A DNA stretch of 63,423 bases, counting the filler, from Guillardia theta CCMP2712 (lineage: Eukaryota; Protista; Cryptophyta), in assembly GCF_000315625.1 (NCBI RefSeq). It is 5 parts of 5 records of this genome, joined end to end, with 100 filler letters (N's around TTAATTAATTAA, not from the genome) between each part and the next. Parts side by side here need not be neighbours in the genome. Positions count along the whole stretch, not along the records: positions 23,365 to 39,660 come from NW_005434329.1; 4 more parts are not named here. The stretch is one strand, 5' to 3'. Under the pieces are notes generated by a model. It saw only the letters and a list, made by a program, of their open reading frames with translations. It was not told where the DNA came from and searched no databases. Below are positions 56 through 37,725 of the stretch, piece by piece. Position numbers and translations under genes: made by a program. The first letter of the stretch is position 1; each line of letters starts with the position of its first letter.

Positions 56-3000
56 TTACTCGCATAAGGTAGCAAGTGCCTCAAGCGACATCCTCATGCA
101 GAAGAAAGCAGCAACAAGCAAAACCGGCACAGCAGAGGAACGCGTCCGCCGCCGCAGAGGCCGCGGACGGAGAAAGGGCAGCCGCCGACAAGGAGCCGGC
201 GCTGCCCGGGGGTCCGCCGGGGACAGAGGGAGGCTGGGCACAGGAGCACGGTACCGCTCGAGGTGACGCATCCAGTCCTCCTGACTAGCCTCGGAGTCAG
301 CGGAAGCCGAGACCAACACCACTGTTTACCTTCTGCGAGTGAAACTTCATACCCGCGACGGCGGCGACGCCGTATCAATGCCCAAGGATGCGCCGCATCA
401 ATGCCCGGGGCTGTGCGGCATCGGAGGCAGGCGAGCTCGGACCAGCAGCAAGCACCCCAGTGGTGTCGAGCTCTCCGGAGGCATCGACTCGTCTACTGAG
501 CACTTCATTCCTCCGCCTGCAGTATGCACAGCGCAATGTGACTCCTCTTGTCATGCGGGTGTTTCCTCGCCACGTCCATGCTCGTGCTGCGCTTACCGAT
601 CAGTAGCTCGAGGTAGAATACGGATTTACTGGCAGAAGGTAAAAAGTGCCTCAAGCAAAACAAAGCAGGAACAAGCTAAACCTCCTGGCACACAGCGCAC
701 AGCGAGAAGCTGCACAATCACACACAAAACACAAGCCCGAAAAGAACCAGCACTGCTGGCAACCAGACGCGGCATCGCCAGCCCAAGCGCGAAGCCGCGC
801 AGACAAGCAGCCGAAGGGTCAAGCAATCAAGCAACAAGCAGCAGGAGCATGCAGGAGGANNNNNNNNNNNNNNNNNNNNNNNNNNNNNNNNNNNNNNNNN
901 NNNNNNNNNNNNNNNNNNNNNNNNNNNNNNNNNNNNNNNNNNNNNNNNNNNNNNNNNNNNNNNNNNNNNNNNNNNNNNNNNNNNNNNNNNNNNNNNNNNN
1001 NNNNNNNNNNGGACTGTGTTGTCGAGCTCTCCGGAGGCACCCGACGTGTTTTGTGTGTGATTGTGCAGCTTCTCGCTGTGTGCTGTGTGCCAGGAGGTTT
1101 AGCTTGTTCCTGCTTTGTTTTGCTTGAGGCACTTTTTACCTTCTGCCAGTAAATCCATTAGGCCGACGTCACAGTGAGGGACGGAGACGCCTCGCCAGCT
1201 CCGCGCCGGTCGTCGGCGCCACTCGAAGTGTTTCCCCCATCGGAGTCGGAGACCTCCGGCGAAGACTCCTCCTCGGGCGACTCGACAAAGTCCTAGGAGG
1301 AGCTGTCCTCTGGCTCGAGAAGTGCTTGCGCCCGCAAGGGCGTCATGCGCCTCGCACCGACTGACCACTGTCAGTCGAGACGTCCGCTGCCGCCACAAAG
1401 CTGGCGGCCGCGGACGGAGAAAGGGCAGCCGCCGACAAGGAGCCGGCGCTGCCCGGGGGTCCGCCTGGGGCAGTAAATCCATTAGCGGACAGAGGGAGGC
1501 TGGGCACAGGAGCACGGTACCGCTCGAGGTGACGCATCCAGTCCTCCTCCTGGTCGGCACTTCGTGCCTGATGACGGACCTGCTGCTGAGGTCTTGGCTC
1601 GCAAACGCGCCGCCACCTATCAGCGCCTCACTATGCAGCTGACGCTGGAGGCGCTCTTGTCTGGTGCGAGGCGCATGACGCCCTTGCGGGCGCAAGCCTG
1701 CGGCACTTCTCGAGCCAGAGGACAGCTCCTCCTCGGACTTTGTCGAGTCGCCCGAGGAGGAGTCTTCGCCGGAGGTCTCCGACTCCGATGGGGGAAACAT
1801 CCAGAGTGGCGCCGACGATCGGCGCGGAGCTGGCGAGGCGTCTCCGTCCCTCACTGCCGGTTCAGCTTGTTCCTGCTTTGTTTTGCTTGAGGCACTTTTT
1901 ACCTTCTGCCAGTAAATCCTATACTGGCTCACTGTGTCTTTGTTTTGCTCGAGGCACTTTTTACCTTCTGCCAGTAAATCCATCTACTGTGACGTCGGGT
2001 GCCTCCGGTGCCTGGAGGTTTAGCTTGTTCCTGCTTTGTTTTGCTTGAGGCACTTTTTACCTTCTGCCAGTAAATCCACTATCTTCTAGCTCGACACCAC
2101 TGGGGTGCTTGCTGCTGGTCCGAGCTCGCCTGCTTCCTCCCCGGCATCGGTCGGGTCACGCCGGTCCTTGGGCATTGCTGCGGCGTCGCCGCCGTCACGG
2201 GCGGCTACCGCTGACTCGGCTACCGCTGACTCGGAGGCTAGCGAGGAGGACTAAATATAGGATTTACTGGCAGAAGGTAAAAAGTGCCTCAAGCAAAACA
2301 AAGCAGGAACAAGCTGAACCGGCAGGCACACAGTCCACAGCGAGAAGCTGCACAAACACACACAAAACACAAGCCCGAAAAAGAACCAGCACTGCTGNNN
2401 NNNNNNNNNNNNNNNNNNNNNNNNNNNNNNNNNNNNNNNNNNNNNNNNNNNNNNNNNNNNNNNNNNNNNNNNNNNNNNNNNNNNNNNNNNNNNNNNNNNN
2501 NNNNNNNNNNNNNNNNNNNNNNNNNNNNNNNNNNNNNNNNNNNNNNNNNNNNNNNNNNNNNNNNNNNNNNNNNNNNNNNNNNNNNNNNNNNNNNNNNNNN
2601 NNNNNNNNNNNNNNNNNNNNNNNNNNNNNNNNNNNNNNNNNNNNNNNNNNNNNNNNNNNNNNNNNNNNNNNNNNNNNNNNNNNNNNNNNNNNNNNNNNNN
2701 NNNNNNNNNNNNNNNNNNNNNNNNNNNNNNNNNNNNNNNNNNNNNNNNNNNNNNNNNNNNNNNNNNNNNNNNNNNNNNNNNNNNNNNNNNNNNNNNNNNN
2801 NNNNNNNNNNNNNNNNNNNNNNNNNNNNNNNNNNNNNNNNNNNNNNNNNNNNNNNNNNNAGGTATAGGATTTACTGGCAGAAGGTAAAAAGTGCCTCAAG
2901 CAAAATAAAGCAGGAACAAGCTGAACCGGCAGGCACACAGTCCACAGCGAGAAGCTGCACAAACACACACAAAACACAAGCCCGAGAAGAACCAGCACTG

Positions 3001-4175
3001 CTGGCACCCAGACGCGGCACCGCCAGCCCAAGCGCGAAGCCGCGCAGACAAGCAGCCTAAGGGTCAAGCAATCAAGCAACAAGCAGCAAGAGCATGCAGG
3101 AGGAATAAAATCCCTTAGTCGCGATACCCGCTAAATGTCCGGAGAACCTCATTGAATAAATGTGGGGAGATGGAGAGCTCATGCGATGTTGTCGTGACCA
3201 TACGTGATCAAAAGGAACAAATAGAGGGCCCGGTTATTTGTCAGCCTCTAAATGTCCGAAGAAGCAATGTATAACACTGTATGTAATCAATCATTATTTA
3301 AGGGCCTTTACTAGGTCATACAGGAAGGAATACGGATTTACTGGCAGAAGGGATTCAGCGGCTATGTTCTGATGTTGTGCTTATGTGATTCATAGATATC
3401 ACACATAAAGCCTCATGTTGCAGCGTCTGAGAAGATTCGCAAACATCGCGCTGGATATGCCATGACTACTCCTCCTCGAGCGTTCATCCCTCTTGCCATC
3501 TCGACGGACGGTACTCTGCATCCTGACCCCCTCCGCTTCATCTGGTATCTGGCGGACATCATTGCTCAGCGCTCGGCCGGTGCCTCTTGAGGACGCGCCG
3601 CCACCTATCAGCGCCTCACTATGCAGCTGACGCTGGAGGCGCTCCTGTTTGGTGTCGGCCTCCGGGAGGCGCACTTTGTCGAGTCGCCGCCGGGCCGAGG
3701 AGTCTTCGCCGGAGGTCTCCGACTCCGATGGGGGAAACATCCACTCGACACCAGTGGGCGTGCTTGCTGCTGGTCCGAGCTCGCCGCCTGCCTCCGCTGA
3801 CTCGGAGGCTAGTGAGGAGGCCGCTGCCCCAGGCGGACCCCCGGGCAGAGCCGGCTCCTTGTCGGCGGCTGACTCTTTCTGCGTCCGCGGCCGCCGGAAG
3901 TAGTGGATTTACTGGCAGAAGGTAAAAAGTGCCTCAAGCAAAACAAAGCAGGAACAAGCTAAACCTCCTGGCACACAACGCACAGCGAGAAGCTGCACAA
4001 TCACACACAAAACAAAAGCCCGAAAAGAACCAGCACTGCTGGCACCCAGACTCTCACGCGGCACCGCCAGCCCAAGCGCGAAGCCGCGCAGACAAGCAGC
4101 CGAAGGGTCAAGCAATCAAGCAACAAGCAGCAGGAGCATGCAGGAGGATAAAATCCCTTAGACGCGATACCCGGA
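56..4175. repeat. Scrambled mosaic of a ~270-bp module and fragments of a GC-rich master sequence, in both orientations
   Basis: Module GGATTTACTGGCAGAAGGTAAAAAGTGCCTCAAGCAAAACAAAGC... starts at 622, 2260, 2867, 3334 (18-nt tip) and 3905, and is inverted ending at 1156, 1480 (tip), 1919, 1981 and 2077. GC-rich pieces recur, e.g. GCCGCGGACGGAGAAAGGGCAGCCGCCGACAAGG near 160 and 1407, and GAGGAGTCTTCGCCGGAGGTCTCCGACTCCGATGGGGGAAACA near 1757, 3697 and inverted near 1227. Confidence 0.85.
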
Positions 4176-4374
4176 CTCGCCGGTATCGCCGGCCGGGCGA
4201 GTCTAAGAAAGTTTGTCTGACGGTTTAGTCAATAAAACAATCAAAACATATTAGTCAATTACAGGAAACATTATTAGTCAACTATCGGGATTTGTCGGGC
4301 ATGCAGGTCGCCAAGTCGGCGCGGGAGCGAGGGAACGAGATGGCGAGAAGGAGAAGACACGAGGAGGCGCTGGT

Positions 4375-25254: not shown

Positions 25255-25375
25255 ATAAATTGATGGATGCCTGTATCACTCGTTCCGGCATAGCCTAGTG
25301 CGAAGCACGCAGGCGAGCAAGCGCAGCTTGCCATATCCCACGACTCTATTATTCCTTAGTTTAGTGGCTACTGTC

Positions 25376-25533
25376 TGGGGAAAATGGGGAAAATGGGGAA
25401 AATGGGGAAAATGGGGAAGGTTTTCAATCCTTTTTTCAAAAATCAAAATTTTTTTTTCACGCTCAAATTTTTTTCTCGTATACACGAAAAACTTTCTAAA
25501 ATCTTCCCCATTTTCCCCATTTTCCCCATTTCC
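25376..25533. repeat. Inverted arrays of 9-mer TGGGGAAAA flanking an A/T-tract spacer (origin-like)
   Basis: Five TGGGGAA(AA) at 25376-25418 and three (TT)TTCCCCA at 25503-25528, around an ~85-nt core rich in A- and T-tracts. Confidence 0.85.
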
Positions 25534-25587
25534 TCTATTTCAGACTAAATTTAGAGAGGTTTAGTAATTAGTATGGTAATTTTTTCC

Positions 25588-27272
25588 TTATTCATCATCA
25601 TCTGAATCAACCATTCCATTGTAAGGATGGTCTCTTACAGATATGTGCTTGAAGCCATTTGATTGTTTATTATCAACAATTATATGTTTATCCGAATAAG
25701 GACCAGCTAGTTTGTTCCTTATGATATATTCCTTCACTTGGGATGGTGTCAGCGAGGTGGTATGTTTACATTTCTTCAATTCTGTTTTTATAGTGCTCAT
25801 GTGCAGGCCTGTTGAAGTGGTATCATATTGGAACATTTCACAGAAGATAACGTTCAGATCTACAGTGCCTCTCTCAGGTTTTAGTGACGAAGAATCTCTT
25901 AATACACACTCTGGAATATTTAAATTATCTCTAAAGCTCTCTAGTATTATCTGTGTAAAAGCCAGTACATTCTCTTCTCTTGTTATCCATTCTTTCAAGT
26001 TTTTATCTGCTAGTTTCCAGAATGATGGGATCGTGATGTCTTGTTCCCTATAATTCATAAACTCTTGTTCTGGTTGGAATTTTGATGGAAACAATATGCC
26101 AACTAGAGTTTCATAAGTGTCGACAGGATCAACTTCTGGAAATTCATTGCAAAAGAAAAAAGGAACTGCATTATGGTTCATCTCTCTTTCATCTACAAAG
26201 TTCTTTCTTACTTGCACTGAATCTCCACCAGTCATCATCTTAATAAGACTCCCATCAATCCTCTCTTTTTTTGATGATTGTCTTATCTCGTTTGTATATG
26301 TAAATCTAACGTCATCCCATGAAGCCATGAAGGATAAGGCTTTTGCTTCGTCTTGTGATTGATGTCTTCTTTGAATTAATGAAGCAAGATTGAAAGTTTG
26401 TGTAAACCCTTCAAATGACTTCTTCATCATGTTGCATATCAAACCCTTGCCACAGTTTCTTTCCCCTTTACATATGAACCATTTCTTATCATTGCTAAAA
26501 CCTGCTATCGTTCTTGACAAACAACCAAGAAAGAATTTTTGTTGTTCAATGTCTGGAAGGATTGGGTCTATCACCTTCTCATAAAACGTCTTCATCACTG
26601 CTTCATCATTTATCATCTTCAAGTCATACGATATTATTCTTGTGAAGTGAATGTCTCTGTTGTATGCTTCATCGAATGACAGTAGTCTTCTGTCCCTGAA
26701 TGAATATATCCCATTATTAAATGGTAAGTATCCCACATTTGAACTCTTCATCCTGTTCAAAAACTGTTCGTCCTTGAAACACTTCGCATCTTGATGGTCC
26801 GTTGTGGTCTTTACTGCCCTCTTCACATTTGACTCGTTGTTTGAGTATGGTTTCATCACCCCTGACTCCATATACATTATATCTAGGTTGTAGTATAGTT
26901 GTGCTATTGCACGATTGACAGCCTTGCTATCAGATATCCATATCTTTCCATTGTAGTGATAGAACGTGTTGTTCGAAAATTTGAAACAACCCTTAAATCT
27001 CTCTTTGAATATCCTGAAAGCACCTAAATCATCATTCTTATCTTGAATCAGATTATCAATCTCCTCCTTTATCGTCATATACTCGTCAAAGGGTTTTACC
27101 TTCAACTTTATCTCTATCCCCGTCCTCTGCTTTATGAACTCCTCATACTTCGTCATGTCTCTCATCCTCTCCTCATTCTCCTCTGTCCATGGCACTTGAA
27201 GCCCATCGTGAATCAATACACACTTGTACCCATTCTTGAACGCTGGGATCACCCCATCCTCTATCAGCTTTA
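25588..27272 (-). CDS. PolA-like (TVpol-type) polymerase/primase C-terminus fused to D5-like superfamily 3 helicase; 5'-truncated by the transposon
   Basis: CVLIHDGLQV...IKLKVKPF (PolA motif C-like); D5_N-like YHYNGKIW, YLPFNNGIY; Walker A GERNCGKG, Walker B FTYTNE, IKMMTGGDSVQVR, FFFCN. The frame is open up to the TA at 27271-27272 with no ATG start. Confidence 0.85.
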
Positions 27273-27325
27273 AAGTTGTTTGCGTTTTTATGTTGGGACA
27301 CTTATTTTTTGTACTTGAATATGTA

Positions 27326-28314
27326 ATGATGTATTCTAGAACTTATCCGGCTGGTGAGGTCATTGCAGCTCTTGAAACCTATAATAGGGTCAAAAGTCTT
27401 AGGAAGGCCTCGTATATCACTGGTATTAGCAAATCCACCATTCATAGATGGTGGACCAATCTTAGAACAGTTATTAGACGCAAGGATAAGCGCAAACGAC
27501 GTTTCAAGCGTCGTCATAAGTATCCTCATCTAGATGATGTTATAAAGCACCTCTTCTGCCAAAACAAAGATCTCGCCTTCATGCATCTAAAGCAAATCCA
27601 ATACACATTGAATCTATCTTATGGCATCTCTTCCTCCTTGACATCTATTCATAGAATCCTTAAAAATGTAAGATATCAAGGCGCCGTTTCAACATTCACC
27701 ATATCAATCCAACAAATCCAAGTGATAGAAAGGCCAGGTTTTCAGACTTCAAAGCCTCAATAGATTTATTCTTGAACGACAATATCGTTTGTCTGGATGA
27801 GACCTCATTCTGCAATGTTGGCAACCCTTTTTATGGCTACTTCCCCAAGGGAAGACAACCCAACGCAATCAAGGTATCAAAACGTGAAAGAGTATCATTG
27901 GTCATGGCTGTTCACCCTTCTCTTGGCATTGTTTCTTATAAACGTGTAAACAAGGCCTTTACAAAGGCTTCATTCTTAGTTTTTTTATAGGGTCTTATTC
28001 CTAAGCTTCCTAAGAGCACAAAAGCCATCCTTATGGATAATGTGGCCTTCCATAGGTCTAAAGAGGTTGTTGGCTTGTTGGAACAACATGGTCTTACCCC
28101 ACTTTATATTCCTCCATACTCACCACGATGCAATCCCATTGAGGAGGTCTTCTCTCTATTGAAGAGGGCTTTTAGAACCAAGACAACAAATAATAGCATG
28201 GTAGACCGTATTGAAGAGGCAATCGACATCATAAAAGGATATAAGGCTTTGGATCATAATTATAAACATACAAGAGACTATGTTAGAGAGGAATGTCAAA
28301 CATTAGGATTGTAA
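27326..28314 (+). pseudogene. IS630-family DDE transposase, disrupted (-1 frame change at ~27662-27666 and in-frame TAG at 27988-27990)
   Basis: HTH SLRKASYITGISKSTIHRW; second HTH SSLTSIHRILK; catalytic CLDETSF, ILMDNVAFH, IPPYSPRCNPIEEVFS. ORFs 27772-27990 and 28033-28314 share a frame across the TAG. Confidence 0.9.
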
Positions 28315-30356
28315 AACGAAAGGCCAAGGGCTTCTTCAAGTCGGAGGACCTTGTTACAATCAAGGATGCTGTCAAGCATGCTCATAGGATCATGTCAGAT
28401 GCGTCCATACTCATCCGATCATATTACCTGCGATGGTTCCAGAGCTCATACCCTCTTGAGTCAGATGGCAAAGAACTTGAGCTTGAGCACTTCCATATAT
28501 CCATGGCCTGTAGCATAGTCCAAGGCATAACAAGGCCTCCAGTCCGTGGTGTTGGTCCTGAACGATCTGCTAAGATAACTATCTTCAACGACATGTTAGA
28601 TGAGCACAAGAAGCTGTATGAACGTCTTCCGAATGATAAAGGGTTCGAAACAGACCTCTCTCTATCACATATCTTAGCATACTCTATCGACAACCTCCTT
28701 ACCGCGTATAAAAACAACATCGAGACCCACTTCTTGAAATACACCAAACGTTATATCCTATGTGACATGCTGGCTAAGAATATGGATAAGTCCGAAGCAA
28801 GGAGAGTGGCTGCTATATACACCAACGTTTATATGTACGACGCAACACTCGACCTACAACCAGATTTGATGCTAAAATATGGTCTCCATGATGCCAGCTA
28901 CTCGTTCCTATTTCCACCTAAGATAAAGGAGGATGCTCCTAGAGTTTATGATCTAAAGGCAAACCCATGGGTCTATCTGCCTAAGATGGTTATGATAAAT
29001 CAGGCCTTAGAGACAGACTTCCTAACTGTGATGCACAAGGAGAGGAGGCTGCTCAATCCATTGCCTTTCTATTCATCGTTTGTCCCGATGCACATACGGA
29101 TTGATACATCCGGCTTATCGCAGCTGCTGATGACTAAGGACCGTATTGATGACTTCAAGAGATTTTATCTTGCTGAGTTTGGAGTAAGTCTGAATATATC
29201 AACCAAGGCTAATATGCTAGCAAGTTTTGAGAAGATCTTTGGACGGAAAGCAACATCGAACAGGGAGGCCGGGCTGTACGCAACAGAGATGTGGAGCTTC
29301 TTGACAAACCTAAAGACGTGCCGACAATGGAAGGAGCTTGACGGGGTGGTTCGTAAGAACGATCCTAAGAGAACACAATGGATGTTTGATAATGCGGTTG
29401 TAACGGATGGTGTGTCCATCTCATTCCAGGTCATTGATAACAACATGTTCGGACGTAAGGTCTTCTCATCCAAGAAGAAAGCAACAACATGTGAGAAGGA
29501 TGATGAACAAGATAGCAAGGAAGTTACAAAAGAAGATCTAAAGACATCGAAGCTATTGGGTTGTGATCCAGGAAAGAGAGACATCCTAGCCATAACAGAT
29601 GGAGTCAAGACAATCTGTTACACCAAGGGGCAGCGAGACATGGACACTCATAAGAAAACAAGACTGAGAAACAATCTAAAGCGGCGCAGAGGGTGTCACC
29701 TAGAAGCATATGAAACACAGGTTATGAACCGATTCCAGAAACGATCTTGCCATCCCGAGATGTTTCAACGCTATGCCTGTTCCAGAAAGAGGATGCAGGA
29801 AAGGCTGCTTGAGTGCTACTCTCATCCAGTCTTTAGAGAGTTCAAGTTTTTGGTTTATAACAAGACCAAGAGCTCCGAACATAGGTTTATGCATAGAGTG
29901 TTTACAACATTCAAACAACCGCAGACAAACCTGGACAAGGCAAGGTGTGCTTCCGGATCTATGCGCATGAACGCTTTGAAGGAGGTCCATAAGCACCAAG
30001 ACATAACTATCGGATGGGGTGACTGGGGAAGGAATCCGAACACGCTAAGATGCTCAATAGGACCAACACCAGGAATTGGAATAAGGAGACGGTTTGAATC
30101 ATTATTCAATACAAAAACAGTGCCAGAGCACTATACCTCCAAGGAATGTCCAAGTTGCAAGGAACGAACCTTGACAAAGACTACATGCAATTCGATCACA
30201 AGACACCATCTGCTTCGTTGTACAAACGATAGCTGCAGCAGGTGGTGGAATCGGAATGTAGCTGGAGCGTTCAACATCCTAAAAAGGCTGTTGGATGGCC
30301 AAACACTGTCCGGTAATGAAACTACCGGAGACGGGTTAGGAGGTGGCGACCTCTGA
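28293..30356 (+). CDS. Fz1: Fanzor1 (eukaryotic TnpB-derived RNA-guided RuvC endonuclease), 687 aa, uninterrupted
   Basis: Fanzor1 N-terminal signature (NLLTAYKNNI..HF.KY.KRYI), TDGVSIS, RuvC-I LLGCDPGKRDIL, IGWGDWG, VPEHYTSKECPSC...LLRCTNDSC zinc ribbon, RuvC-III WNRNVAGAFNI. Starts within the last 22 nt of the transposase frame. Confidence 0.93.
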   Translation: MSNIRIVKRKAKGFFKSEDLVTIKDAVKHAHRIMSDASILIRSYYLRWFQSSYPLESDGKELELEHFHISMACSIVQGITRPPVRGVGPERSAKITIFNDMLDEHKKLYERLPNDKGFETDLSLSHILAYSIDNLLTAYKNNIETHFLKYTKRYILCDMLAKNMDKSEARRVAAIYTNVYMYDATLDLQPDLMLKYGLHDASYSFLFPPKIKEDAPRVYDLKANPWVYLPKMVMINQALETDFLTVMHKERRLLNPLPFYSSFVPMHIRIDTSGLSQLLMTKDRIDDFKRFYLAEFGVSLNISTKANMLASFEKIFGRKATSNREAGLYATEMWSFLTNLKTCRQWKELDGVVRKNDPKRTQWMFDNAVVTDGVSISFQVIDNNMFGRKVFSSKKKATTCEKDDEQDSKEVTKEDLKTSKLLGCDPGKRDILAITDGVKTICYTKGQRDMDTHKKTRLRNNLKRRRGCHLEAYETQVMNRFQKRSCHPEMFQRYACSRKRMQERLLECYSHPVFREFKFLVYNKTKSSEHRFMHRVFTTFKQPQTNLDKARCASGSMRMNALKEVHKHQDITIGWGDWGRNPNTLRCSIGPTPGIGIRRRFESLFNTKTVPEHYTSKECPSCKERTLTKTTCNSITRHHLLRCTNDSCSRWWNRNVAGAFNILKRLLDGQTLSGNETTGDGLGGGDL

Positions 30357-30478
30357 GACCTAGAACTTAGAGTGCGAAAACGCCATTACTATTGTGATGC
30401 CTATTCAATGGTGTTGCCTTTGGCAAGCTCTGCTTCCCAAGTGTAAAAAGAAAGCACTCTAAATCGAAACTTGATAAG
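30305..30478 (+). ncRNA. Predicted Fanzor omegaRNA (scaffold to ~30459 plus flank-derived guide); 5' end uncertain
   Basis: Stems: CCGGTA/TACCGG (30310-30328), GAGGT/ACCTC (30340-30353), AACGCCATT/AATGGTGTT (30379-30415), TTGCC/GGCAA (30414-30426), and long-range TAGAGTGC (30368-30375)/GCACTCTA (30454-30461). The position overlapping the ORF end and the transposon right end is as established for TnpB/Fanzor. Confidence 0.7.
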
Positions 30479-31252
30479 ATAAGACGAAGACATGAAGCGA
30501 AAAATGAATATATTAGTGATGATCACAAGGCCTTGTGTGATAAATATAGGTTGTACAATGAATTAGTGAATAATAGCAAGGCTAAAACTATAACAGAATC
30601 TTATGATATTGTTGAAATAGCAGACAAATCATTCACCATAAAAAAGAACACTGTTACATACTATTTCAACAAGTACAATAAGTATTTTGTAAACTCATTG
30701 TTCATTCACACAAAATTCTTGCCATATGACCCATCATTCTTCACAAAGAATGTTAAATTTATCAAGAACCTTTCTACTGAAATCTTCAACAGCACTATTA
30801 TCGAATGTTTCAGAAGCAACGATGCAAACAAGCTAGCACCACTCTTTCAGGATGCTCCAAGGACTGAAAAACCCATGCTGCTGTATACAACGTCAAATGA
30901 CTTCAGATCCTTCAAGAATAATGATGTGTTTGAGATCGACACAGCGTTCCCAATGAAACTCATGATGTTTGAAGATCAATTGAGCATGAACATGCAATCC
31001 ATTCGATGCAGGCTCCTTATTCCAAAGAACACCCCTTTGATAGCTTTCAACAGTCAGGTGTACCTCAACGCTAAACATAAATTTCTTGTTAGAGATAATG
31101 CCAAGGAGATCATCTATTACAATGGAAAGTATATGAGCAATTCAACAACATCTGTTCCCAAAGAACAACCATCATTTAGCAGCATCTGCCCCGCTGATTT
31201 TAGATTCTACAAAACAATCACTGTCGTTGACCTGATCCTTCTTGAAGACTAG
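30461..31252 (+). CDS. Hypothetical viral-like protein, apparently 5'-truncated at the transposon right end
   Basis: The frame of ORF 30533-31252 is open back to the junction (KSKLDKIRRRHEAKNEYISDDHKALCDKY...) with no nearby ATG. Confidence 0.7.
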   Translation, partial: KSKLDKIRRRHEAKNEYISDDHKALCDKYRLYNELVNNSKAKTITESYDIVEIADKSFTIKKNTVTYYFNKYNKYFVNSLFIHTKFLPYDPSFFTKNVKFIKNLSTEIFNSTIIECFRSNDANKLAPLFQDAPRTEKPMLLYTTSNDFRSFKNNDVFEIDTAFPMKLMMFEDQLSMNMQSIRCRLLIPKNTPLIAFNSQVYLNAKHKFLVRDNAKEIIYYNGKYMSNSTTSVPKEQPSFSSICPADFRFYKTITVVDLILLED

Positions 31253-34746: not shown

Positions 34747-37725
34747 TCATACTCTAGGCTTCTTCGAAGAGTCCTCTTGTGGTTCCTTGTCAGCATCCTT
34801 TTGTGATCGGCAGAGTTGTTGGCTGTATGATGCTATCATATTATTGTATTTGTCGAAGTGTACCTTTCGATTCAAACTGACCATGTTCCTCATCTTCTTT
34901 GTGTTTCTTAATATGCGCTCATATACATTCCTTACAAATGGTGATTGTGGAATCTCGTTCTCAGTCTTGATCCCGTTCTCAGATATCAAACGCAACCACT
35001 GCTCCTCAATAGGAAGGAAGCTCTTCTCTAATACCATCTGAGGAACCTCGATGAGCCTCTCCAGCATCTCGCTCGAATATGCCATTGGCTTGCTTGATGA
35101 AGGCAAGCAACACACAACAAGCTCTCTTTCATCCACAGATAGCTCAGATTCAAAGGTTGATACAACAGACCTTACAAATTCCTTCTTCTCAACAAGTGAT
35201 GCCTCAAATCTGTTCAATACTGCCTTCAGGTGCTCTAAGAACCTTGGAACTCTCACATCGTTCTTCATGGCCATGAGCATCCGTTGTGATGCCATCGCAA
35301 GCATGCACGCAGACAGCACATCAAAATGAAAGTCAGCATGGAACTTGTGCAACCTGCTAAGGTCCAGCAACAATGTCTCGGGACAGTCCTTCGTCTTAAC
35401 TGGCTCATTCCCTGTGATGAGGCTCAACACAGAGGCAGTATGGATATCGACATATGCCTTCGCCTCTCCTCGCACAAGCCTCGCAAGATCTGTCCTTCCC
35501 CTCTCAATCTCCTTCTGTATGACCTCATGAATCCATTCAGGTGTCCGCTTTAGATAGGTTGGGTTCGCCTTCAGCTTCTTGTTCATGTGCGCTTGTTCAT
35601 ATTCTATGCCATGGTTTTGTATTACATGAGCAATGCTCCGCAACCTTGTGTTTGCTGCGTCCACTCTCATGACATTCACGCGTGACAGCACGTACTCCAA
35701 TGCCTTGCAGAAAGACATAGGTTGGTCTTGAGGGGTGCTAGCTCTCAGTTCCTGCTCAAGTTCATTCCACCTGTCCTGTGTCTCTTTCTTCCTGAATGGT
35801 TCCTGGATCTCCATTGCGATTCCCAACATGCCCCTGATCAAGGATATACATGACTCCCAATCAATGGTTCCGGACTCGATCTGTTCCTGCCAATACAATG
35901 TGTCAATCTTCTCCTTTAGTTCTTTGCTCCGGCCAGGTGTAAGATCTATCATGCCATCTCTAACCTCTCCTATGACCCTTAGCACTCTGATGTAACAAGG
36001 TGGGCTCAATCTAAGGTCATCCACAAGGCTATCCCAAAAGGCCACCTTGAAGCTCTCTCGCACCTTTGCGAGCACAGGATTTTCAATGTATCCCGCTCCC
36101 TCAACATCAAGCGTGAAGGTTGGATCTAGAAGGAGTTCATGTGCCAACTGTTCATTTGTCATCCTGCCAGGGAGGGAAGACAATCCAGACGCATTCATGG
36201 AGGATGATTCAGGTGCTGGCACTGAAGGAGGGGTATCAACATTAATAGAGCTCAATCCTTGTAGAACAAGTGATTCATCGAAGCTCTCCAATCCCTGTGG
36301 CCCTGCCATCTGGAGCATCTTTGCTCTGAGTTTAACCTTCTGTGATTCAAATTCGGCCTTCATAGAATCATACTCCTCATTATCAGGGTGAAGGTGTGAT
36401 TCAGCACGATAGACAGCAAGAAGAGCATGCTTGATGCGCTCCGTAAGCTTGTTTTCATCGGGGATCTTCCATGCCTTGAAGGCATCAAGATACTCATCAA
36501 GCTGTTTCAGAAAGCATATCCATGAATGCCAATCATACAGAGTAACAGGCCTTGATTTCGAATCCTCAACCCTTGAGCAGATATCTTTGAAGGTGCTCAC
36601 AAGTCTTTTGGCGGCATCCTCAACAGTCCTCTCAAGCCTGCCAATACACTCGAAACAGCTCTCAGGCCTTGCAATGATCATGAACGCTGCTAAGAATACC
36701 CTCACATTTGGTCTCTCAACATTTCTTGTGTCCGAAGGGATCCTTGCTCTGATCTTAGCTCTTGTTGTCAGGTATATGATTGTTTCTAGCATCTTCTTCA
36801 TGCGCAATATAACCCAATTCACTCGCAAGCGTGCTGTCACCTCTTCAAATGGAGCGGTGTTCATCCACTCAGATATTATCCTTGTGCTGTTCACTCTTGA
36901 CACTTGGAATCGGATAGATCCCTTAAGTACATGGTTTCTGAAGAATCGGCTGATAGCAAGGCTTGCGGATGTCTCATCAAGATTTGGGATTTGTTGTTGT
37001 GTCTTCCGTCTGTAAAGATTCTTATGGCATCGCGAGTAATATTCAGGATCGTGTGCTATCAAGTCCCTATTGCTTTGACAAACAAAGACCTCGTCATTAT
37101 CGTATATGATTGATTGTGTGTCCTCATAGAATTCTGATATGCCTTCTTGCTCCTTGAAACACTCCTGGATATTATCACCCTTCGCTATGAAATTTGAGCA
37201 CCATCTGATGATGTTGTTACAATGATGCGCAAATCCGATGTTTCCAGGCAAGGGCTTGCCAAAGGTAATACACCTCATATTTCTCTGTGAGAGGGAATTC
37301 TGAACAGCATGAAGCATCGTCAGTTGTGATAGGAGCCCACCCATTGAAAACCCTGAAAAGTATATCTCATTGTCTTGCGATATATCTTTGAGGAACTCAA
37401 TAAGCTCTTTATATACATGGCTATTGAGAAGCCTCTGTAGATGAAGGACAACAGGGGAGAGGATGGATACATTGGAAGGGACATTGCTCCATATCTTGTC
37501 AACCTCATTTAGGGGGCTCAGGGAGCAATCATCGGGAATGATGAGATCATGGTGAAGATGGAAGGCGATAACATAGCTCAAACCAGAATGAAACACCGAT
37601 ATCTTGACATCATCAATTTCCCAGGTTTGAACGAGCTCGGCGGGAACCCCACTTCCAAATCTTGTTTGATCATAAACATGAAGGGAAGACAATCCGCAGA
37701 TAGATACAATCTTGAAACTATACAT
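34747..37725 (-). CDS. Class-3 lipase domain fused to T-complex protein 11 (TCP11/SOK1) domain, 992 aa, intronless
   Basis: Lipase: IYFSGFSMGG, CITFGKPLPGN, GDNI, AHDPEYY. TCP11: NVRVFLAAFMI, QLAHELLLDPTF, AFWDSLVDDL, MRVDAANTRL, GIEYEQ, PETLLLDLSRL. Confidence 0.85.
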   Translation of the reverse strand: MYSFKIVSICGLSSLHVYDQTRFGSGVPAELVQTWEIDDVKISVFHSGLSYVIAFHLHHDLIIPDDCSLSPLNEVDKIWSNVPSNVSILSPVVLHLQRLLNSHVYKELIEFLKDISQDNEIYFSGFSMGGLLSQLTMLHAVQNSLSQRNMRCITFGKPLPGNIGFAHHCNNIIRWCSNFIAKGDNIQECFKEQEGISEFYEDTQSIIYDNDEVFVCQSNRDLIAHDPEYYSRCHKNLYRRKTQQQIPNLDETSASLAISRFFRNHVLKGSIRFQVSRVNSTRIISEWMNTAPFEEVTARLRVNWVILRMKKMLETIIYLTTRAKIRARIPSDTRNVERPNVRVFLAAFMIIARPESCFECIGRLERTVEDAAKRLVSTFKDICSRVEDSKSRPVTLYDWHSWICFLKQLDEYLDAFKAWKIPDENKLTERIKHALLAVYRAESHLHPDNEEYDSMKAEFESQKVKLRAKMLQMAGPQGLESFDESLVLQGLSSINVDTPPSVPAPESSSMNASGLSSLPGRMTNEQLAHELLLDPTFTLDVEGAGYIENPVLAKVRESFKVAFWDSLVDDLRLSPPCYIRVLRVIGEVRDGMIDLTPGRSKELKEKIDTLYWQEQIESGTIDWESCISLIRGMLGIAMEIQEPFRKKETQDRWNELEQELRASTPQDQPMSFCKALEYVLSRVNVMRVDAANTRLRSIAHVIQNHGIEYEQAHMNKKLKANPTYLKRTPEWIHEVIQKEIERGRTDLARLVRGEAKAYVDIHTASVLSLITGNEPVKTKDCPETLLLDLSRLHKFHADFHFDVLSACMLAMASQRMLMAMKNDVRVPRFLEHLKAVLNRFEASLVEKKEFVRSVVSTFESELSVDERELVVCCLPSSSKPMAYSSEMLERLIEVPQMVLEKSFLPIEEQWLRLISENGIKTENEIPQSPFVRNVYERILRNTKKMRNMVSLNRKVHFDKYNNMIASYSQQLCRSQKDADKEPQEDSSKKPRV

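Follow-up and report, generated by a model that had tools for sequence, protein, structure and literature searches.

Closest described systems and the locus

Fanzor1 genes carried by mariner elements with TA duplications have already been described (PMC3627910; bioRxiv 2024.09.03.611062). For GtFz1 of Guillardia theta, expression of the omegaRNA and its binding by the protein, giving an active ribonucleoprotein (RNP), have been demonstrated (PMC10432273), as has cleavage of double-stranded DNA that depends on the guide and on a target-adjacent motif (TAM) (PMC10432273, PMC11423790). This TAM is TTAA(N) (PMC10432273, PMC11423790), and cutting is lost when any TAM base is changed (Xu et al., PMC11423790). 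The GtFz1 locus was described as seeming to lack inverted repeats (IRs) and a transposase, and this apparent lack was taken as a hint of a role unlike that of TnpB (Saito et al., PMC10432273). A 2026 review makes the general statement that the TAM includes the 5′ target site duplication (TSD) and the scaffold the 3′ TSD (PMC13565253). We found no paper assigning GtFz1 to an IS630-type element, in a search that left out Repbase and most subscription papers. Here we analyse another Fanzor1 locus of G. theta CCMP2712, within a stretch of DNA of 63,423 nucleotides (the window; all positions refer to it). Saito et al. 2023 (PMC10432273) already printed this locus with both its flanks, as record two of their supplementary file 8, beside the GtFz1 locus.

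We consider it probable that the locus is a rearranged, non-autonomous IS630-Tc1-mariner transposon (27273-30459) with a broken transposase, an intact Fanzor1 gene and an equally intact omegaRNA region, likely yielding a GtFz1-like nuclease predicted to cut element-free alleles of its right flank that are bordered by TTAA. What is new is that GtFz1 is placed in an ordinary IS630-Tc1-mariner element whose target equals the TAM. Homology supports the view that all parts of the RNP are encoded at the locus. The element is of full length yet non-autonomous. A sequence-only reading of the same DNA had called it a complete element ending at 30478, a description that we do not retain, because the transposase is a pseudogene, its two parts in different frames and one of them carrying an in-frame TAG, because the right end had been set 17-19 nt off, and because the flanks come from no single pre-insertion site and fail to rejoin into a single target site.

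Element ends and target site

27270..27272, plus strand: left target half, T followed by the duplicated TA (27271-27272); conservation starts at 27270 (loose ends in runs X2 and X3)
27273..27298, plus strand: left imperfect terminal inverted repeat (TIR); first base A, which is G in the GtFz1 locus and in relatives L003, L024 and L025
30414..30435, plus strand: 21-nt hairpin segment without counterpart in the GtFz1 omegaRNA; inverted in the left end of the GtFz1 locus (by eye)
30435..30459, plus strand: right imperfect TIR, final base C
30460..30462, plus strand: right target half, the duplicated TA (30460-30461) followed by A, placed by copy comparison, the GtFz1 scaffold and relatives

The element occupies 27273-30459 with TA on either side, inserted within T-TA-A so that the filled site reads T-TA...TA-A. 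The copies diverge before 27270, in agreement with the left TA first read at 27271-27272, and three contigs of run X2 diverge behind 30462. The true right end is 30459, and the remaining bases up to 30478 are the predicted guide. When the reverse complement of the left end was compared globally, with anchored ends, the best match was the segment ending at 30461 (rank 1 of 16,300 in the island that surrounds the element), while candidate right ends at 30476-30479 rank only 2073-4219; an earlier local-alignment test did not rank the true end first. TA is duplicated at both ends, and the uninserted allele has a single TTAA: in runs X1 and X4, the uninserted left site reads TTAA and continues with other sequence behind 27273, a continuation represented by the PolA-like protein P0123, which reads through this site.

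Relatives of the element share this arrangement. Right ends read C/G-TA-A in four of the five loci found by a Fanzor protein search (L002-L005; none is recognisable in L001), and likewise in L024, while left ends placed by TIR alignment are T-TA in L002, L003 and L007. Imperfect TIRs are also present in L002, L003 and L024. The pattern scan itself imposed TAA on the right ends that it found (L007-L014), so these were left out of the TSD evidence; L011 and L013 are possibly not elements, and eight of the 11 left-end pattern matches are attributable to chance. A piggyBac-type element targeting TTAA was considered and rejected, as the right junction is CTAA or GTAA and never TTAA, and the transposase is of the DDE_3/IS630 type.

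Since the 21-nt segment lies in opposite ends of the window element and the GtFz1 locus, the TIR homology would extend to about 50 bp, with the segment as its inner part (by eye). The segment is covered without gaps by record 22 of run X3 and is absent in L003. Separately, the base after TA-A is a purine in all 13 distinct right ends (10 A, 3 G), though the measured TAM has N at this position; these ends are those of the window (30463), the GtFz1 locus, L002-L005, L007, L009-L013 and L024, two of which are possibly not elements. The loose-end consensus of run X2 has T after TA-A.

A disabled transposase

27329..28314, plus strand: IS630-Tc1-mariner (DD34E) transposase pseudogene; frameshift near 27661-27666, in-frame TAG at 27988-27990, catalytic codons at 27796, 28036 and 28141

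The DDE transposase noticed from the sequence is present in the sense that DDE_3 matches lie upstream of the Fanzor gene, but it has no single open frame: the helix-turn-helix (HTH) portion (27329-27673) is encoded in one frame and the DDE portion (27664-28311), which the TAG interrupts, in another. Its overlap with the Fanzor frame is real and amounts to 22 nt. The two pieces are 88% and 91% identical to an intact relative of 328 aa, P0127 (tblastn, two frames). P0127 and a further relative, P0128, pass the NCBIfam model NF033545, the former with 132.9 bits against a cut-off of 100, and the DDE part of the window, with its stop read as X, scores 98 bits. The combination of an HTH with an IS630-type DDE domain of DD34E spacing is thus found here, and 69 of 97 transposase homologues are 300-360 aa long. 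Other copies are open at the lesions, at the frameshift in X2 and X3 and at the stop in X1, X2 and X4. An intron across the stop was rejected, since other copies have a sense codon there and the intact 328-aa relatives are colinear. The element cannot make its own transposase and is therefore non-autonomous. As a side observation, the region 27803-28232 looks like a mosaic with respect to two X1 contigs, sharing variants with one on its left and with the other on its right, possibly through gene conversion between copies.

An intact Fanzor1 protein

28293..30356, plus strand: intact Fanzor1 open reading frame (ORF), paralogue of GtFz1, 687 aa; D425, E612, N655; zinc cysteines 619/622/643/648

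The 687-aa ORF at 28293-30356 and its motifs stand as first described, with GCDPG at residue 423, GDWG at 576, EHYTS at 612, CPSC at 619 and RNVAG at 654. The protein has the catalytic layout of Fanzor1, consisting of the RuvC-I residue D425, the rearranged E612, which lies six residues ahead of C619, a C4 zinc finger (C619/622/643/648) and N655. The GDW motif listed in the sequence-only reading is not catalytic: at position 577, 74 of 120 homologues have N and 37 have D, and GtFz1 has N (here and below, residue counts refer to 120 listed homologues of 175).

A phmmer comparison with GtFz1 (PDB 9CER) gives 1353.7 bits over residues 2-687, and the two proteins are about 85% identical (101 mismatches in 686 aligned residues, counted by eye). 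All nine of the GtFz1 residues R85, S123, H126, Y130, T137, N141, Q277, F391 and N655, which Xu et al. 2024 tied to TAM reading, unwinding and catalysis (PMC11423790), are matched. An AlphaFold2 model built from 60 homologues has a pLDDT of 88.4 and shows a Fanzor1 fold with extended REC and RuvC; a Foldseek search with this model returned 9cer first (E 1.1e-73, TM 0.82/0.93), with SpuFz1 and PpFz1 at ranks 2-7. Both the identification as Fanzor1 and the suspicion that this is a paralogue of GtFz1 rather than a new family are borne out by these results.

Of the 120 homologues, 115 retain S123, 111 Y130 and 114 Q277; at position 655, 103 have N, 8 have D and 9 have a gap. The RuvC-III asparagine, called unique to GtFz1, is thus present in 103 of the 120, which form a set of natural variants with TTAA as their predicted TAM. 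No entry in the protein collection searched is identical to the whole 687-aa protein. Its first 575 residues are identical to the G. theta gene model GUITHDRAFT_122506, which is mis-spliced and fuses these residues to an adjoining ORF.

Predicted omegaRNA and guide

30304..30463, plus strand: predicted omegaRNA scaffold; overlaps the last 17 Fanzor codons; basal stem pairs 30367-30375 with 30454-30462
30464..30478, plus strand: predicted native guide, about 14-15 nt of the right flank, placed by homology to the GtFz1 omegaRNA

The element's right end contains a conserved, structured non-coding region. The tail proposed from the sequence is indeed structured (z -3.83, none of 200 shuffles as good), but its length is about 160 nt (30304-30463) and not about 100 nt, and its assignment as an omegaRNA from the 3′ end of the element is upheld by homology to the GtFz1 scaffold (Saito 2023 supplement), from which it differs, counted by eye, by eight substitutions, the last base and one 21-nt insertion. 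The published GtFz1 scaffold stops one base past the same right-end word. The predicted fold has a first stem of 7 bp, as in the GtFz1 structures, and a basal stem of 9 bp that includes the duplicated TA and the next A. L002, L004 and L005 retain this basal stem with altered base pairs, and L003 retains it with a single mismatch, though the stem's complementarity could derive partly from duplication of the TIR at the DNA level.

Flanks and setting

25588..27273, minus strand: left flank, C-terminal part of a PolA-like (TVpol-type)/D5 helicase gene (D5_N, DUF5906), cut by the element
30464..31252, plus strand: right flank, 262 open codons from the junction, an unrelated and probably 5′-truncated gene without Pfam or PHROG family

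The flanks are halves of different genes, and the empty left-site allele continues with sequence unlike the right flank. This mismatch likely arose by recombination between two insertions or by an adjacent deletion. The N-terminal part of the left-flank gene is not in the window, where residues 285-365 of P0123 match and residues 1-284 have no match. P0123 represents another G. theta PolA-like gene, with about 80 residues in common with the window gene (27034-27276) and a different C-terminal region; this side observation amounts to an exchange of helicase modules between viral elements. No relatives of the right-flank ORF were found among 1.84 billion representatives. A language-model comparison (Atlas) gives this ORF a resemblance of 0.82-0.83 to ADP-ribosyltransferase-like clusters, which is below threshold and serves as a lead only.

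The virus-like surroundings noted earlier were recovered as an island of lower GC at about 23-39.5 kb with HNH, EsV-1-7 and lipase-Tcp11 genes and host-type genes on both sides. Of the features expected of a Polinton-like virus (capsid, packaging ATPase, terminal repeats) none was recognised, although the island has the TVpol/D5-like gene and four of its ORFs have no annotation. Among eight island ORFs scanned, those of the element excluded, there was no match to a capsid or packaging ATPase, and no inverted repeat spans the island. Several further features were seen there. A 992-aa ORF at 34747-37725 on the minus strand fuses a class 3 lipase domain to a Tcp11 domain. At 25270-25345 and 25376-25540, a GC-rich, hairpin-like repeat that resembles the 21-nt TIR segment and is multi-copy in runs X1, X2 and X4 (loose ends at 25287-25338) adjoins inverted 9-mer arrays. 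Direct repeats of 125 bp (24948/25130) and 81 bp (39090/39262) lie close to the island edges.

Relatives and the Fanzor-transposase partnership

Judged by sequence, the GtFz1 locus and the environmental relatives are IS630-Tc1-mariner elements with imperfect TIRs. The GtFz1 locus (Saito 2023, supplementary file 8) has the same element ends and the same transposase remnant as the window. In that remnant we also observed the same in-frame TAG and two short hairpin-like insertions, and around TA the target site of the GtFz1 locus is almost perfectly palindromic, over about 10 bp on each arm.

Matching by identical largest-contig size paired 27 of the 120 Fanzor homologues with a transposase homologue, where the chance mean is 2.1 and the chance maximum 6; all 27 pairs come from the same source database, and their distances correlate (Mantel r 0.50; 0 of 2000 permutations). 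These patterns point to a long partnership of Fanzor and transposase rather than chance neighbours, and the two appear to co-diverge.

Internally deleted derivatives that join both ends occur in run X2 and in viral contigs (L003, 846 bp; L024, about 450 bp; L007, about 60 bp). L003 (3376-4221) is a non-autonomous derivative that retains both ends and the omegaRNA region; nested within it is part of another gene, TnpB/Fanzor2-like to judge by its motifs (ORF 3385-3657). L007 (match at 4001-4031), in the same viral contig as L003 and L025, is a near-perfectly palindromic miniature element of about 60 bp made from two right ends. L005 has a Fanzor of the GtFz1 clade and a right end on a 2.2-kb contig of a Bacteroidetes metagenome-assembled genome, likely mis-binned eukaryotic or viral DNA. 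Scanning with the single Fanzor protein gave one distant metagenome locus, and single-protein scans of viral contigs gave none for Fanzor and none for the D5 protein. A search with the transposase alignment gave one distant locus, L006, without a recognisable right end.

Proposed mechanism and alternative explanations

The family inserts as T-TA[element]TA-A. As demonstrated for GtFz1, a right-end transcript would here yield a scaffold of about 160 nt followed by about 15 nt of flank as guide, with the duplicated TA and the next A closing the basal stem. Judging from the conserved contacts, TTAA would be both the TAM and the intact target site. The filled right junction reads CTAA beside the guide match, so that the element would be spared, while an empty allele would be cut and repaired from the filled one. 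Such repair would amount to homing, or would restore the element after its excision, and virus genomes are the most plausible setting. Insertion falls within the TAM, so that TAA is restored at the filled right junction, where the terminal TIR base (C, or G in L002) alone would prevent targeting. With no transposase of its own and with flanks from two genes, this copy would probably make a protein more useful in trans, with RNAs of other copies.

Several points weigh against this interpretation. Excision by Tc1/mariner elements usually leaves footprints, and these would not restore TAM and protospacer; given such footprints, uninserted alleles in other virus genomes are a likelier substrate than the excision site. 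The nuclease activity of this copy is inferred from its sequence, and the 21-nt insertion separates its scaffold from the RNA tested for GtFz1. Within the window, the guide has no target, the best of 122 TTAA sites having six mismatches in 15. The left-like end of L012 is C-TA, and the pairing of Fanzor and transposase homologues is indirect. No editing by GtFz1 was seen in human cells or in protoplasts of rice (PMC10432273, PMC13599430), and the 2026 review doubts that DDE elements benefit (PMC13565253).

The alternative that we take most seriously, although we would not favour it, is that the element is a silent fossil in an endogenised virus fragment, whose Fanzor frame is open merely because insertion was recent. 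The two transposase lesions, the presence of the same TAG in the GtFz1 locus, the truncation of both flanking genes and the lack of a recognised capsid gene among the island ORFs scanned all fit such a fossil. However, 2,061 coding bases of Fanzor have stayed open against two lesions in 986 nt of transposase, and copy differences in the Fanzor ORF are mostly synonymous (12 of 14 listed, against 22% expected), although these 14 rows come from 40 shown of 744, selected by the tool, which weakens the argument. Moreover, an active RNP was obtained from the sister GtFz1 locus, which has the same dead transposase, and the fossil explanation bears on present-day use in the alga, not on the identity of the protein. 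That the mismatched flanks are an assembly chimera of two properly flanked copies seems unlikely. Run X1 holds at least three element variants, and no contig among those listed spans the element; yet, compared by eye, the two flanks and the two transposase lesions recur in the older 16-kb scaffold of the Saito supplement, and flank depths in X1 are equal (86, 87), with each junction bridged by single contigs. The same join in the older scaffold and the equal depth thus make a chimera less likely, although the assemblies may share data and X1, possibly the window's own source, is not independent.

We give still less credence to a role of the Fanzor in defence of the alga or of a resident viral element, in which a guide from a viral gene would cut incoming viruses that carry the uninserted allele. 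The guide does lie within a gene of a virus-like island, relatives of the element occur in viral contigs, and packaging of Fanzors into virions is described for an endogenous giant virus of Chlamydomonas (bioRxiv 2024.09.03.611062), but the position of the guide is dictated by the insertion point, no virus with a target was found, and there is no sign of guide arrays or domestication. Equally speculative, to our minds, is a more general proposal, which sees in the GtFz1 clade an IS630-Fanzor family borne by viruses. One four-base word would then serve as the target T-TA-A, the TAM TTAA and the basal stem of the omegaRNA, one base at the end of the TIR would stop self-cutting, and endogenised copies that have lost the transposase but retained the nuclease would act as an RNA-guided memory against viruses with the uninserted gene. 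We thus prefer the reading as a non-autonomous, rearranged transposon that probably specifies a GtFz1-like nuclease. As a nuclease it adds little, being a near-twin of GtFz1, a poor editor in cells. Since GtFz1 structures and assays exist, together with the intact transposase relative P0127, the benefit of a Fanzor to a cut-and-paste DDE transposon is directly testable.

Comparison with known systems

The closest system is GtFz1 (XP_005840014, GUITHDRAFT_101477; PDB 9CER/9CES/9CET), which shares with the window copy the D-E-N triad, the TAM contacts, the element ends and the transposase remnant, and whose scaffold is about 94% identical outside the 21-nt insertion; the window copy differs in locus, flanks and guide, and in its extra 21-nt scaffold hairpin. 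The mariner-Fanzor1 elements PGv-1 and PUl-1 of Bao and Jurka (2013), and the IS630-Tc1-mariner Fanzor families A-C reported for the giant endogenous virus of Chlamydomonas (bioRxiv 2024.09.03.611062), are alike in having a transposase and Fanzor1 between TIRs, TA duplication, a viral setting and non-autonomous derivatives. However, their Fanzors belong to another lineage as far as tested (none was named among the homologue matches), and in the window element the target is narrowed to TTAA, matching the measured TAM. SpuFz1 and its element Spu-1 resemble the present system in the Fanzor1 fold (TM 0.65-0.67), in an omegaRNA drawn from the right IR plus 14-15 nt of flank, and in ghost loci, but SpuFz1 is only 16-17% identical, uses the TAM CATA and has the canonical D in RuvC-III, and Spu-1 has no transposase inside its IRs. 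Finally, TnpB of IS200/IS605 and IS607, for which restorative homing is the model, likewise has a left-side TAM and a right-flank guide and cuts empty sites, but those elements move scarlessly by HUH or serine-recombinase transposition, whereas the window element belongs with a DDE cut-and-paste transposase and a TSD.

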